From NCBI RefSeq assembly GCF_006345805.1, contig NC_043000.1, positions 127,782,001 to 127,846,000 of the forward strand: DNA of 64,000 nucleotides, read 5' to 3'. Below, one piece after another: positions 3,421 through 33,386 of the stretch. Position 1 is the first letter of the stretch; each line of letters opens with the position of its first letter. The notes under the pieces are model-generated. The model was not told the DNA's origin. It searched no databases and was given only the letters and a program-made list of their open reading frames with translations. The DNA is from Octopus sinensis (lineage: Eukaryota). The translations under genes were made by a program, and so were the position numbers.

Positions 3421-3529
3421 ATATATATATATATATATACACACACACACACACACCACACACACACACACACACACACACACACATATATATATATATA
3501 TATATATATATATATATATATATATATAT
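3421..3529. repeat. (TA)n/(CA)n compound microsatellite
   Basis: Directly visible. Confidence 0.98.
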
Positions 3530-3724
3530 TCTTAAATAAGAATATTATTGACACTGACTTCGAAGTTTCAGACTGCAGTCCACTGATGGCTTAGCTGGCC
3601 AAAACTTCGAAGTCATTGCCAATAATATTCTTGTCTTAGAATAATAAATTAGTTCTCTACATACGAGTAACCCATCAGGTTAATGTAAAATTGCCTTCAT
3701 TATAACTGAACATAATAAATGTTA
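3529..3724 (+). mobile_element. Short hairpin-plus-tail element with decayed HHR (PLE-derived)
   Basis: Inverted arms 3529-3570 and 3599-3642, loop containing ctgatggc..gcc-aaaac-ttcgaa-gtc, unique ~80-nt tail, microsatellite on both sides. Confidence 0.6.
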
Positions 3725-4189
3725 CTTGTGTGTGTGTGTGTGTGTGTGTGTGTGTGTGTGTGTGTGTGTGTGTGTGTGTGTGTGTGTGTGAAAAATTGGT
3801 TGCGAACGTCACGTTTTTAAAGTATATTGGACGATGGAATATTTTGTAACTGAAAAAGCCAAACAACAAAAACGTATTATGTGTTATATGCAGCAAGAAT
3901 AACGCAGTCCTGGAGGAATATAATATACGTAAGCATTATCAAACGAAGTATTCATATCCTAATTCTCTTCAAATAGAAAAACTACGTCATGGGAGATATG
4001 AAAGTATTTTATCAGTATTTTTAACAGACGTGTTTTTTGGGTTTTTTTTAGTTAGATAACTGCTAATAAAGAAGTAACTAAAAGGCTAGTCTGAGAGTAG
4101 ATTATTTGCAAACCAAGAAAAAAGAAACCTCATTTAGTGGCGGTGAATTAATTAATTTTTTTTGTGATTACAACAGCTAAAGAAGTATC

Positions 4190-4583
4190 TTTTATCTTTT
4201 GCTTGTTTCAGTCAGTGGACTGTGGCCACGTTGGAGCATAGCTTTCAAAAATTTAAGTCGAACAAATAGACGCCAGTATTTGTTTTTGAAGTCTGGTACT
4301 TATTTTATCGGTTTACTTGACCGCACTGGTAAGTTACGAGGAGGTACGTAAACCAAACATCGTTTGTCAACCGGTGGGAAGGGACAATCATATATATATA
4401 TATATATATAATATACGATGGGCTCCCATATAGTTCCCGTCCACCAAAATATCTCACGAAAGTATCGGTTGGCCCGGGGCTATAGCAGAAGGCTACTTAC
4501 CCAAGGTCACGCACATTGAGACTGAACACAGAACCACTCGGTTACAAAGCTAGCTTCTTAACCACACAGCCTTGCCTGCACCT
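4190..4583 (-). mobile_element. SINE family B (tRNA head, CORE-like domain, internal microsatellite), diverged copy
   Basis: Homologous to the better copies at 28628-29030 and 46099-46490. Confidence 0.8.
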
Positions 4584-4689
4584 ATATGTATATTCCGTAA
4601 AAATAAATTCATTCAAAAAATTAGTCTTTCTACAACATCAGAGACTGGGGGAGTCGAAGACATAGGAAGCAATATCTTGTTCCAATTAA

Positions 4690-5960
4690 ACAACAATACG
4701 AAAGATTTCTGTTTGGTTTTCTCTGGTTCTTGATGAGTGGACAGCTGCGTCTGACAGTTCGGTGTTGCTATTGTTTGTTGAGGGAATTAATGCTGACTAC
4801 GAAGTCATGGAACAGCTATTGATGATGACATTTCATAAGAGCTGGAGAAAACATTAACTAAGTGCAACCTGGTTTAAAAACATTTAAAGTATTTTACAAG
4901 CGACGGTGGAAAAATTTTGTGTGGCGTAAAGAAAGGTTATATTGACTGAGCCTACACAACTTGTGACAGTATGAAGTGTAATGTAAAAATTAAAAAAACT
5001 CTATGGTGTTTTACTGCACCATTCATCACCAGGAACTTTGCGTAAAACATTTAAATCTATCATCTGTGACAGAACCAAGCGACAAACAGCGAATTTTATT
5101 TGATCGCGTGTGCTCAATCAATGTCAGTTTCGAACATTTTGGGAAGAAATACAAACTGAATATAGCAATTTGCTGTACTACACTATTGAATAATGGTTTA
5201 GTAACAGTAATGTTTAGTAAGCAGCTATACCACACTGCTGAAAGATTGTTTAGTAACGGTGGAGTTATCTCAGGAAGTTTTTAAAACTTCTGATGAGGAT
5301 TTTTATTTATTTTAATGAGAAAAATTGTTCTCAGGCACAAATTGCAAACGGCAAATGGTGTGGGAAAATGGCATTTCCCACTTCACGAGCTGCATTTTAG
5401 ATCACATTGCCATTCTGAGCTTATAAGCGGCATATACTCTGCTGTAGAAGCATAAAATAACATTTTACCAATCCCAGTTTATGATAAATAACTTCGGTCA
5501 CTTTTCTTGCTGTGATAAATATACGAAAGAAGCAAAATTCTTGTTTCCTTTCTAAATCACGCATCACATTTTCACTTGACAGAAGTTACAATATTAACAG
5601 AGTTTGGCAAATCTCAATAAAAATGTGAAATCATTAAAAACCTTTCAAAAGCCATTTCACTGCATTATTGAAGTGACATCCAATAGATCTTCAACCGGAA
5701 GTTATTGATTTGTTGCCAAATGATATGCTAAAAGGCAAATACATTTATAAAAGGGAAAACATTTATAAAATGACTCCCAGATAAAGGATTTACTCCTTTA
5801 AAATTTTTTGCTGTGAGTGGGCTTTTCACACAATTTATTTATGTGAAAGAACATTTTCAAGCATGAAATATATCAAATTGTGTTAACTAACTACTTGCAA
5901 TCAGTTGTGATTGAAGGAACCACGAAATTTGAACCACATTTTAATATTTTCTTATCGTTT
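4690..5960 (+). mobile_element. Decayed hAT (SPIN/GTF2IRD2/Buster-like) transposase remnant
   Basis: Fragments resembling DESTD...LLFV.GI...YEV.E.L (4731-4820), CxxH..xLC.K (ORF 5003 YCTIHHQELCVKHL) and the dimerisation motif YLCERTFSSMKYIK (5836-5880). Many stops. Confidence 0.7.
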
Positions 5961-5984
5961 AAAAACAGGAAAGAGATTTAAAAT

Positions 5985-6508
5985 ACTCTCTACTCTTTTA
6001 CTCTTTGTTTCAGTCATTTGACTAAGGCCATGCTGGAGCACCGCCTTTAGTCGAGCAAATCGGCCCCAGGACTTATTCTTTGTAAGCCTAGTACTTATTC
6101 AATCGGTCTCTTTTGCCGAACCGCTATGTTACAGGGACGTAAACACACCGGCATCGGTTGTCAAGCGATGTTGGGGGGACAAACACAGACACGCAAACGT
6201 ATACACACACACACGCACGCGCACGCACACACACACACACACACACACACACACACACACACACACACACACATATATATATATATTATATATATATATA
6301 TATATATATATATATATATATATATATATTTAGACATACATATATGCGATGGGCTTCTTTCAGTTTCTGTCTACCAAATCTACTCACAAGGCATTGGTCG
6401 GCCGAGGCTATAGTACAAGACACTTGCTCAAGGTGCCATGCAGTGGTACTGAACCTGGAACTATGTGGTTGGTAAGCAAGCTACCTACCACACAGCCACT
6501 CCTATGCG
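5985..6508 (-). mobile_element. SINE family B with expanded (CA)n(TA)n interior
   Basis: Near-identical in reverse to 31362-31863. Confidence 0.9.
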
Positions 6509-30895: not shown

Positions 30896-31361
30896 CACCA
30901 TTAAAAATAATTTACTTGATAGAAGTTTACATTAGTTTGGCAATGCAGAATATGAAATTTAGCAATGCAACTGGTATAAAGCTAAATCAATTGGTTCTAG
31001 TCTGCTACAGTTACTTATTTTACCATATTTCAAAGAATGAAAAATACAGTCTACTCAAGTCCAGTTTAAAATCAAAATGTAAGGTGATTGGAATGAAAAT
31101 GTTAAAGTGTTCTGCCATTTCAGTAAACAAGGGAGCTGCTCTATGGTCACTGAACCTGCTACAAATAGCAGCTAAATCTTCCTCAAATCACAATTGGCCA
31201 TCTTAAACAGGGAAATGAGACATTAAATAATTTTGTCCTAAAAAAATAAGATTGTTGTAACTGCAATACCCTTTAATGATAAGCAGAGCCTATAGAATGG
31301 AGTTTACCCAGCACATCATGAAGACAGACAGGGACCAATAAATATCTAATATTTTCCCATT

Positions 31362-31863
31362 TAGGCGTAGGAGTGGCTTTGTGGTAAGTAGCTTGCTTAC
31401 AAACCACATGGTTCCGGGTTCAATCCCACTGTGTGTCACCTTGGGCAAGTGTCTTCTACTATAGCCTCGGGCCGACCAAAGCCTTGTGAGTGGATTTGGT
31501 AGATGGAAACTGAAAGAAGCCCATCGTATATATGTATATATATATATATATATATATATATATGTAAACAGTAAAAAATAAATACAGACATAAAAAATAA
31601 ATACAGTAAAAAATAATAAAAAAAGTAATGTGTATGTGTGTATATGTATGTTTGTGTGTCTGTGTTTGTCACCACAACATCGCTTGACAACTGATACTGG
31701 TGTGTTTACATCCACGTAACTTAGCGGTTCGGCAAAAGAGACCGGTAGAATAAGTACTAGGCTTACAAAGAACAAGTCCTAGGGTCGATTTGCTCGACTA
31801 AAGGCGGTGCTCCAGCATGGCCACAGTCAAATGACTGAAACAAGAAAAAGAGTAAAAAAGAGA
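31362..31863 (+). mobile_element. SINE family B
   Basis: Full-length copy. Confidence 0.92.
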
Positions 31864-32843
31864 GTATATATTTTTAAAAAAAGCCTGTCAAGGCTTCCTT
31901 GAATTTTAAGATAGAATAAGGAAAACTCCCCAAAAGCTGTTTTGTTCTGCTGTGTAAAATTTCTCTCAGTAGCTTTGATCATAGATCTGTTCAATCAGAG
32001 CTGACCTAAAGATAATCAAGCTAACTTTAATTAGCTGCTCATCATCTACTCAATATCATTAACTATTGACACTCACAATACTTTGAAGCCTGAGGCTAAC
32101 AAAGTATCAGATTTTCTCACACACAAATACATACCACACTGTAATTGGTTACCAAGTAATGTTGCCAAATCAGACGACTAATCAATGCAAACATTTAGAA
32201 AAAGAGAAAAGAATAACGATTGCCTTATTTGTACTACTGTTGTTCTTTTGTTTCAGTTATGTGAACCACAAAAGGCTCTTGACACAATACTGCCTTATTT
32301 ATCCAATTCATTAATGTGTGAATAGAATCAAATGCTGCACTTTCTTGATTAGATACTGCCTCAATGGATGGTTAACCTTAATGACTGCTTGAAGGTTTTT
32401 TTCTCAAGAGCCTTGGCAGGGTTGGCTAAATATCTAAAACCAGGAATTGAACCAGTTTCACAGATTCAGTTTGTCAGTAGTGCCAGTAGCATTAAAAAAA
32501 GCACTCAGTACACTCTGTAAAACGGTTGGCATTAGAAAGGGCATCCAGTCATAGAAACCTTGCCAAAGGTTACATTGGAACTCAATGCAGCCCTACTGTT
32601 TGCTAGTCCCCTCTCAAACCATCCAGCCAATGCCAGCATGGAAAGCGAACATTAAATAATGATTTTATATATACATATATATATATATATATATATATAG
32701 AGAGAGAGAGAGAGAGAGAGAGAGAGATATTCAAATGAATTAGGTACTTGAGTTGAAGCACCAAAATTTAGTGCGGTATTATCCATACAACTTCAAAATA
32801 AGGTAAATAAAATGAAAATAAGTGACAGGATAGTCCAGAGGTG

Positions 32844-32931
32844 ATGCAGTACGACCGTTTCAAGCAGCTCCATTTAATTGAACAAAGCGATCATTACATC
32901 AATTTAAATGCAGGGCTATCCTCAGCTGCAT
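32844..32931 (-). ncRNA. Type I minimal hammerhead ribozyme
   Basis: Minus strand: atgcag-CTGAGGA-long stem II-GAAAC-ggtc-GTA-ctgcat. Confidence 0.72.
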
Positions 32932-33039
32932 AAATAAATAGAATTTTTTTTTAATCAGGCGGACACATTAGTATAATTTTACTTAAATCCTATTAGAGGA
33001 TTTAAGTAAAATTATACAAATGTGTCTGACTGATTATTT

Positions 33040-33127
33040 ATGCAGCTGAGGATCGCCCTGCATTTAAATTGATGTAATGATTGCATTGTTCAATTAAATG
33101 GAGCTGCTTGAAACAGTCGTACTGCAT
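33040..33127 (+). ncRNA. Type I minimal hammerhead ribozyme
   Basis: atgcag-CTGAGGA-...cattta.aattga/tcaatt.aaatg...-GAAAC-agtc-GTA-ctgcat; 6-bp stem I. Confidence 0.72.
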
Positions 33128-33386
33128 CACCTCTGCACATCCTGTTGCTTATTTTATATATAACTATTATAATAAATTATTTTAATTTATTACCCTCATA
33201 TTTATGAAAGTAATATTTATAATTCAGAGGCTGTATAGAACACAGTTTTAGATTTATTTATTTACTGCTGGATTATATATTTACGCTCACGCACAAAGTT
33301 CAAATCCATAATGGATAAAAATCTATCTGTCTTGTGCACATGTTTTCAGTACATATTTACAACTACATAATTATTAATTAATTAGC

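Follow-up and report, generated by a model that had tools for sequence, protein, structure and literature searches.

The analysed window comprises 64,000 nt of Octopus sinensis DNA (NC_043000.1, 127,782,001-127,846,000) and contains four hairpins, here called A, B, C and D, each set in TA-type microsatellite sequence and each carrying an extension, or tail, on one side only. The hairpins are very probably pairs of 5'-truncated copies joined head to head in (TA)n and drawn from four unrelated repeat families, of which C and D are the 3' ends of Penelope-like elements (PLEs); each pair was likely produced by a single insertion event of a PLE reverse transcriptase (RT) and its GIY-YIG endonuclease (EN). 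A preliminary description of the window had reported four hairpins with one-sided extensions, TA-type flanks and no common sequence, and this was borne out.

The arms of hairpin A are about 44 nt long and its tail about 82 nt. Hairpin B has arms of 155 nt that are 92% complementary (19972-20126 and 20134-20288) and a tail of about 90 nt. The arms of hairpin C are about 900 nt long (20295-21192 and 21365-22285) and match at 95.8% over 927 gapped columns, with the outermost 302 nt being 100% complementary; its tail is about 70 nt. Hairpin D has arms of about 170 nt, a self-match at 32815-33155 of 84% with an ungapped core of 105 nt at 95%, and a tail of about 86 nt. Tail length among the four spans 69-90 nt, always on one side of the hairpin. 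Only a TA stub separates B from C, so the same microsatellite was hit twice, and further TA stubs lie at the far sides of the two hairpins. Pairwise blastn comparison of A, B, C and D found nothing beyond short AT-rich words (best E 0.008). The components of each hairpin and the adjoining microsatellites are listed in Table 1.

Table 1. Positions in the window of the copies, junctions and microsatellites that make up the four hairpins.
Component	Positions	Strand	Program
(AT)22 microsatellite adjoining the tail-less end of A	3486-3529		Tandem Repeats Finder (TRF)
A, short inverted tail-less copy (left arm); outer end fixed in the family	3530-3573	-	
A, copy with tail: loop 3574-3596, right arm 3597-3640, tail 3641-3722	3574-3722	+	
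(TG)32 microsatellite past the tail of A	3727-3790		TRF
B, copy with tail: tail 19891-19980, arm to 20126, 7-nt loop	19891-20130	-	
B, inverted tail-less copy, ending at the second terminus of the family	20134-20279	+	
TA stub common to B and C	20280-20292		
C, tail-less copy: 912 nt of PLE 3' untranslated region (UTR), reference positions 76-987	20295-21192	-	
C, inter-copy junction, unaligned to the reference copy	21193-21259		
C, copy with tail: 1094 nt of PLE 3' UTR, tail 22286-22356	21260-22356	+	
(TA)17(GA)14 microsatellite adjoining the tail of D	32666-32727		TRF
D, copy with tail (32729-32814): PLE 3' end	32729-32995	-	
D, inverted tail-less copy; TA stub 33157-33165 follows	32996-33156	+	

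Searches of the octopus's own genome (2.72 Gb) showed that each hairpin belongs to a large repeat family and is therefore not a chance structure. First-look candidates numbered at least 2221 for A, 2962 for B, 1774 for C and 4249 for D, counts that are lower bounds rather than copy numbers, with 40 candidates scored for each. Many of the scored copies of B, C and D were single arms, with or without the extension, so the hairpin is not the unit itself but that unit with a partial copy attached in inverted orientation. When copies were aligned with their flanks, the outer ends were constant in all four families and the inner joints varied from copy to copy; loop position was thus variable and the ends fixed, the pattern for which the preliminary description had proposed a check. 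Variable 5' truncation combined with a fixed 3' end was present in A, B, C and D alike, as were two alternative 3' termini, 69-90 nt apart, that make the tail optional. The tails are part of the families rather than unique flanking DNA. Inverted partial copies were found at 16 of 36 C loci and also in B and D, and tandem copies in B (590-bp period) and at one D locus (L164).

The census of family C started from scored matches, which supplied 22 ends that carry the extension and 15 unpaired ends that lack it; for all of these except C10983, up to 9.6 kb was fetched inward and mapped on a natural long copy. The 36 loci comprised 16 head-to-head dimers and 20 single 5'-truncated copies, "single" meaning that no partner lay within 9.6 kb, and this proportion, by which palindromes are a common product, agrees with the earlier proposal that they are the normal one. 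Joints all differed among the dimers, and the arms ranged from 128 to at least 3900 nt. Every dimer (16/16) was one-tailed, with one arm starting at reference position 1-2 (tail) and the other at 75-88 (no tail). Among the single copies, 11 had the tail and 9 did not, so the tail-less terminus is an independent start site. At the single-copy rates, the chance that all 16 dimers would be mixed is about 8e-6 (0.45^11 x 0.55^5). Arm identity within dimers averaged 99.07% (n=12, 500 nt) vs. 96.88% between loci (n=78).

Nearly identical arms would also result if priming took place on one side of the target and the cDNA then folded back to prime its own second strand, and some loops are very short, as in B (7 nt) and in the adjacent joints of loci L127, L129 and L150. 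However, a fold-back copy should extend to the start of the first cDNA and give symmetric ends, yet all of the C dimers are asymmetric. The tail-less terminus is also found in single copies (9 in C, 6 loci in B), and the target (TA)n adjoins both outer ends; fold-back synthesis is an unlikely source of the dimers. The difference in identity within and between loci bears on another explanation, by which two members of one family inserted independently into one microsatellite or the palindromes arose afterwards through DNA-level events at fragile TA repeats. TA microsatellites are indeed targeted repeatedly, one being common to B and C and another, to the left of A, being where a PLE remnant ends. 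Independent hits do not predict the higher identity within dimers, the invariable head-to-head arrangement with no target DNA between the copies, or the one-tail rule, and we consider both possibilities very unlikely.

The ends of the copies lie in TA repeats far more often than random positions do. An end was counted as TA-flanked if a (TA) run 8 nt or longer occurred no more than 24 nt beyond it. By this criterion, TA flanks were present in family C at 17 of 18 tail ends and 6 of 6 tail-less ends, in D at 14 of 20 and 11 of 15, and in B at 11 of 26 and 8 of 16, compared to 5-8% for random positions in the same loci. Inspection of C by eye placed (TA)n next to 14/14 tail ends and 14/14 tail-less ends.

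Longer copies of family C are palindromic as well (arms of 1.7, 1.7 and 3.3 kb) and contain an open reading frame (ORF) that reads toward the outer end. An intact frame of 842 amino acids was present at 3 of 70 scored places, and given these intact ORFs the family is young. From the stop codon to the 3' terminus is about 2.0-2.1 kb; the ORF measures 2.5 kb, the 3' UTR about 2.05 kb and the whole element about 5 kb. Since the arms in the window are at most 1094 nt, the window copy is pure 3' UTR. The ORF had 579 database relatives at E<=1e-3, and its nearest Atlas clusters combined HTH_animal, RVT_1 and GIY-YIG (scores 0.96-0.98). An alignment of 25 sequences showed conservation of the RT motifs F.FD and GLYRDD (YRDD in 25/25) and of the C-terminal set Y...Y+G..K.R..H...E..N. 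An AlphaFold2 (AF2) model of the protein had a pLDDT (predicted local distance difference test) score of 79.9, and its best PDB matches by Foldseek, with the whole protein as query, were telomerase TERT chains (E 3e-8 to 6e-8), the ranking being taken up by the RT. Telomerase RTs are the expected top structural matches because PLE RTs are their sister group, as stated in the available part of Craig et al. 2021 (PMC8557442). Searches of the PDB by sequence and by profile returned no matches. Judged by its conserved motifs and modelled fold, family C is a PLE with a predicted telomerase-like RT and C-terminal GIY-YIG nuclease.

The alignment also pointed to the placement of family C among PLEs. 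DKT (D in 25, K in 25 and T in 21 sequences), RW (24 and 25), CxCX5C (25/25), and CxxC and CxH around conserved E and N residues (25/25) were all present, and the Cys pair between GIY and YIG was not conserved (at most 7 of 25 sequences). The Hydra clade, as far as it is described in the accessible text of PMC8557442, likewise has DKT for DKG, RW(K), a CxCX5C linker, no CCHH, CxxC/CxH and (TA)n targets. The motif set of C appears to fit that description point by point, in a match made by published motifs.

Two further observations concern the internal structure and the 3' end of family C. Two copies on different contigs (L135 and L136; C4:68211306- and C5:85990254-) have a common internal duplication in which reference positions 1389-2073 and 1389-2375 are repeated, representing either a subfamily or a segmental duplicate. 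At the arm/tail boundary in the window (22286-22310), the second 3' terminus coincides with the beginning of an AC-rich stretch, CUCCACCACCUACACCACCAAAC (RNA sense). Analysis of 3'-terminal RNA structure gave no stable fold, with z-scores of -0.2 to -0.8 (-0.2 at the C arm/tail boundary).

Family D is connected to PLEs by what lies upstream of it. Sequence of the 5' part of D is found again downstream of a GIY-YIG remnant, and a search with the EN remnant overlapped inner-D matches at 11 or more places. At four loci (L163-L166), a remnant of a GIY-YIG ORF is followed on the same strand by about 700 nt and then by D; the contiguity of D with the EN remnant at these loci identifies D as a PLE 3' end. 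The D-linked remnant is 47-49% identical to the EN of C (E down to 8e-33). D reaches the tail-less terminus in L163, L165 and L166 and the tail-bearing terminus in L164, which has the partial tandem copy. In these old copies only the EN was found, and the RT part was not seen at the four loci. The suggestion that the tails would match the 3' ends of elements with PLE ORFs therefore holds for C and D.

Family B is a non-coding unit of 590 bp that occurs in head-to-tail and inverted arrays, and the copy in the window is 5'-truncated. Its copies begin at the tail end or at reference positions 162-175, with single tail-less starts at 6 loci, and 5' ends fall at reference positions 675-697 in 4 loci. 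B is likely a non-autonomous passenger. In family A the 5' starts of the copies range from position 3 to position 401 of a 651-nt query, whereas their 3' ends cluster: of 40, 24 fall at 643-651, 6 at 571-572 and 5 at 613-619. The alignment of long A copies extends over 1.1-1.26 kb or more, with an identity of about 70%, and the search for ORFs upstream of them gave no matches. To judge by these alignments, A derives from an old element that measures at least 1.2 kb, of which it forms the 3' end. A search for PLE proteins across 56 loci of A, B and D gave no matches except two unrelated EN remnants, and comparison of A and B with two PLE remnants revealed no similarity. The earlier suggestion of a class of mini-retroelements did not hold, since A, C and D are 5'-truncated ends of long elements and the term fits at most B, the one short unit among them.

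The hairpin shape and the TA flanks would be equally at home in a miniature inverted-repeat transposable element (MITE) or a foldback DNA transposon with terminal inverted repeats (TIRs) and a TA-targeting transposase, and the palindromic Harbinger repeat of the frog, as reported in the available part of PMC5625713, has the same shape and the same capacity for double-stranded RNA (dsRNA) formation. In contrast to such elements, A-D do not have fixed symmetric TIRs in every copy. Their inner joints vary, their ends are asymmetric with two alternative termini, and copies with a single arm are frequent or even predominate; B occurs in head-to-tail arrays, and no transposase parent is found. For C and D a MITE origin is already contradicted by the RT/GIY-YIG ORFs into which they continue and which are oriented toward the ends, and for the set as a whole it is highly improbable. 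One palindrome in the window does behave in this way. It is a fifth one (9498-10421), whose arms measure about 400 nt (86%) and enclose a 124-nt loop; its left flank is TA-rich and its right flank is (AT)17. Most of 40 scored copies were full hairpins with the same loop and symmetric ends (query 38-943), and 8 consisted of arm and loop only (39-550). The fifth palindrome is either MITE-like or a hairpin amplified as a unit.

Chimeric long reads can also yield near-perfect palindromes by mis-joining during assembly. Such joins are an extremely improbable source of the hairpins, as dozens of loci are built alike, flanked by unique sequence on either side and ending at termini specific to their family, and the older hairpins A, B and D have diverged arms (76-95%).

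Hammerhead ribozyme (HHR) cores had been assigned to three of the four hairpins in the preliminary description, and both searches for them were negative in A-D. Rfam gave no match at the gathering score in the whole window; at E<=10, three sub-regions gave 15, 17 and 18 matches, none of them a hammerhead and all to generic hairpin (microRNA) models. The relaxed HHR core pattern CUGANGA-N7-17-GAAA, taken from the available text of Craig et al. (PMC8557442), had no occurrence in A, B, C or D and 4 in the whole window vs. 1.5+-1.1 in shuffled sequence. Isolated CUGANGA heptamers were present in C (3) and D (2) and absent from A and B. Two conserved strings were considered as candidates and rejected. 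One, antisense within the C ORF (L076, about 1830-1854, minus strand), combines CUGAAGA, UCCG..CGGA and GAAA and resembles an HHR core with helix II; it has neither U16.1 nor a proper helix III and no Rfam match. The other, a CUGAAGA...GAAA stretch in B, has no helix II.

The architecture of the hairpins resembles that published for PLE insertions. According to the available portions of Craig et al. (PMC8557442), these are 5'-truncated, often form partial tandems, often have an inverted 5'-truncated copy alongside and carry a tail of 30-40 bp at one end, and (TA)n is favoured by Naiad and Hydra PLEs. The copies studied here are alike in their 5' truncation, inverted partner, one-sided tail and (TA)n target. 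They differ from the insertions described there in that the window copies are mostly short non-coding 3' UTR pieces, which accounts for their small-hairpin look. Biochemical work on a lizard PLE, Poseidon of Anolis (PAc), showed that on an AT-rich target its protein cleaves the two strands and extends them, and that reverse transcription starts at two internal sites, the tail being the stretch between them (Frangieh et al. 2024, PMC11167929). The AT-rich target, the two 3' termini and the tail as the interval between them have counterparts in the octopus families, and the AC-rich arm/tail boundary of C recalls the AC-rich initiation site of the lizard element. PAc belongs to a different clade and carries a hammerhead, and its activities are established at the bench, whereas the octopus families are known from sequence alone. 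Metazoan non-LTR (long terminal repeat) retrozymes, in the accessible parts of their descriptions (bioRxiv 10.64898/2026.07.22.740005; PMC8969392), share short non-coding units and head-to-tail arrays with B, whose ends are PLE-like; retrozyme units carry hammerheads, in contrast to B, where none was found and the conserved stretch is without helix II.

The data fit two converging target-primed reactions joined by template switching. By this route, and by analogy with the in-vitro PLE work (PMC11167929), the endonuclease would cut both strands of an AT-rich target, and both 3'-OH ends would prime reverse transcription, each at one of two internal sites close to the RNA's 3' end. Each cDNA would end before the 5' end of the RNA is reached, and the two would be finished by switching onto each other, the loop of the palindrome being their meeting point. 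We infer that both arms would be copied from one RNA with each start site used once, which would explain the single tail per dimer. The signature of such a shared mechanism is the combination of fixed outer ends, variable joints, TA flanks and, in C and D, ORFs that read toward the ends. The preliminary description had likewise proposed that PLE-type insertion at TA repeats makes palindromes, and that part stands; the self-priming that it offered as a route is a poor fit with one tail per dimer.

Several points weigh against this interpretation. Two-sided priming is carried over from another PLE and was not observed here. The tails of 69-90 nt are longer than those published (30-40 bp), and the size given for the Hydra clade (<3 kb) contrasts with about 5 kb for C, including its 3' UTR of about 2 kb; both published figures come from the accessible part of PMC8557442. 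The same source calls canonical HHRs universal in Hydra and other canonical PLEs, and no hammerhead was detected in family C by Rfam or by the core pattern, although one would be expected of a Hydra PLE. Pfam hmmscan recognized no domain in the C ORF, and among its relatives found GIY-YIG in 2 of 25 (best E 2.5e-4) and RVT_1 in 1 of 25. B is without an autonomous partner and A without an ORF, their link to PLEs being the insertion signature by itself, and the TA flanks of A are weak (3 of 7 tail ends, 2 of 8 tail-less ends). One tail was present in 9 of the 10 B hairpins and 13 of the 14 D hairpins examined, counts that are biased in that most of these hairpins were found with a one-tailed query; tail/tail pairs (L062, L069, C3:23236322) and no-tail/no-tail pairs (2 loci) do occur in the two families. 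The samples, 40-70 candidates scored per search, were not random, the census could class as single a C copy with a partner beyond its 9.6-kb limit, and target-site duplications are unreadable where the ends lie inside TA repeats.

The surroundings of the hairpins contain other repeats. An older, very high-copy repeat (19751-19867 and 22406-22558) encloses B, C and their TA repeat, and contigs from other copies of it join 19867 to 22406. The presence of this joint in runs of other species was considered as an empty allele and rejected, the depth being at repeat level and B and C lying inside the older repeat. Other copies of the enclosing repeat also hold an internal TA microsatellite, which would provide PLEs with ample targets. 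Upstream of A, a PLE GIY-YIG remnant lies at 2203-2470 (+), extending to about 3424 (80 tblastn matches, best E 3e-9). The DNA downstream of it stops at the (TA)n/(AC)n microsatellite in which hairpin A is set, so this microsatellite may have been hit at least twice. Copies resembling short interspersed nuclear elements (SINEs), seemingly tRNA-derived, are found at 6664-7059, 16513-16889, 31384-31857 / 33882-34269 and 12515-12621 / 14925-15031. Arranged in tandem and in inverted pairs, they make up most of the window's other long inverted repeats and have no relation to the PLE hairpins.

Since the architecture is already published for PLEs, the mechanism proposed in the preliminary description is broadly right without being new. 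The feature is of a known kind, to which the present analysis adds the assignment of the hairpins to families and the statistics on dimers and tails. The frequency of dimers (16/36), the one-tail rule (16/16) and the 99% identity of the arms supply numbers for a feature that the available portions of PMC8557442 and PMC11167929 give only in words. These numbers constrain models of PLE integration and point to a coordinated two-strand event rather than to fold-back or independent hits. On this reading, the small "MITE-like" hairpins at TA repeats in this large invertebrate genome are dead-on-arrival PLE dimers, and repeat annotation should place them neither among MITEs nor among unclassified SINEs.

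The palindromes may also matter for RNA. In eight putative RNA runs, T>C vs. C>T places numbered 80:48 in four and 47:53 in the other four, the runs being non-independent and the short contigs possibly from other copies; these counts, made without matched DNA, give no evidence on editing either way. The available part of PMC5625713 reports for octopus an exceptionally large proportion of loci that give rise to long, near-perfect dsRNA, with no repeat annotation given, and states that Penelope in a lizard is heavily edited. A far-reaching extension, possible though doubtful, is that PLE integration gives a near-perfect palindrome in about four of every ten insertions, with one tail because a dimeric RT-endonuclease uses each start site of one RNA once, and that tens of thousands of PLE copies at TA repeats are the main cause of the excess of dsRNA and the hyper-editing of octopus. 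A more limited link of the hairpins to dsRNA and editing is plausible on the basis of that source: if transcribed, they would present ADAR with ready substrates, and the lineage is one known for RNA editing.

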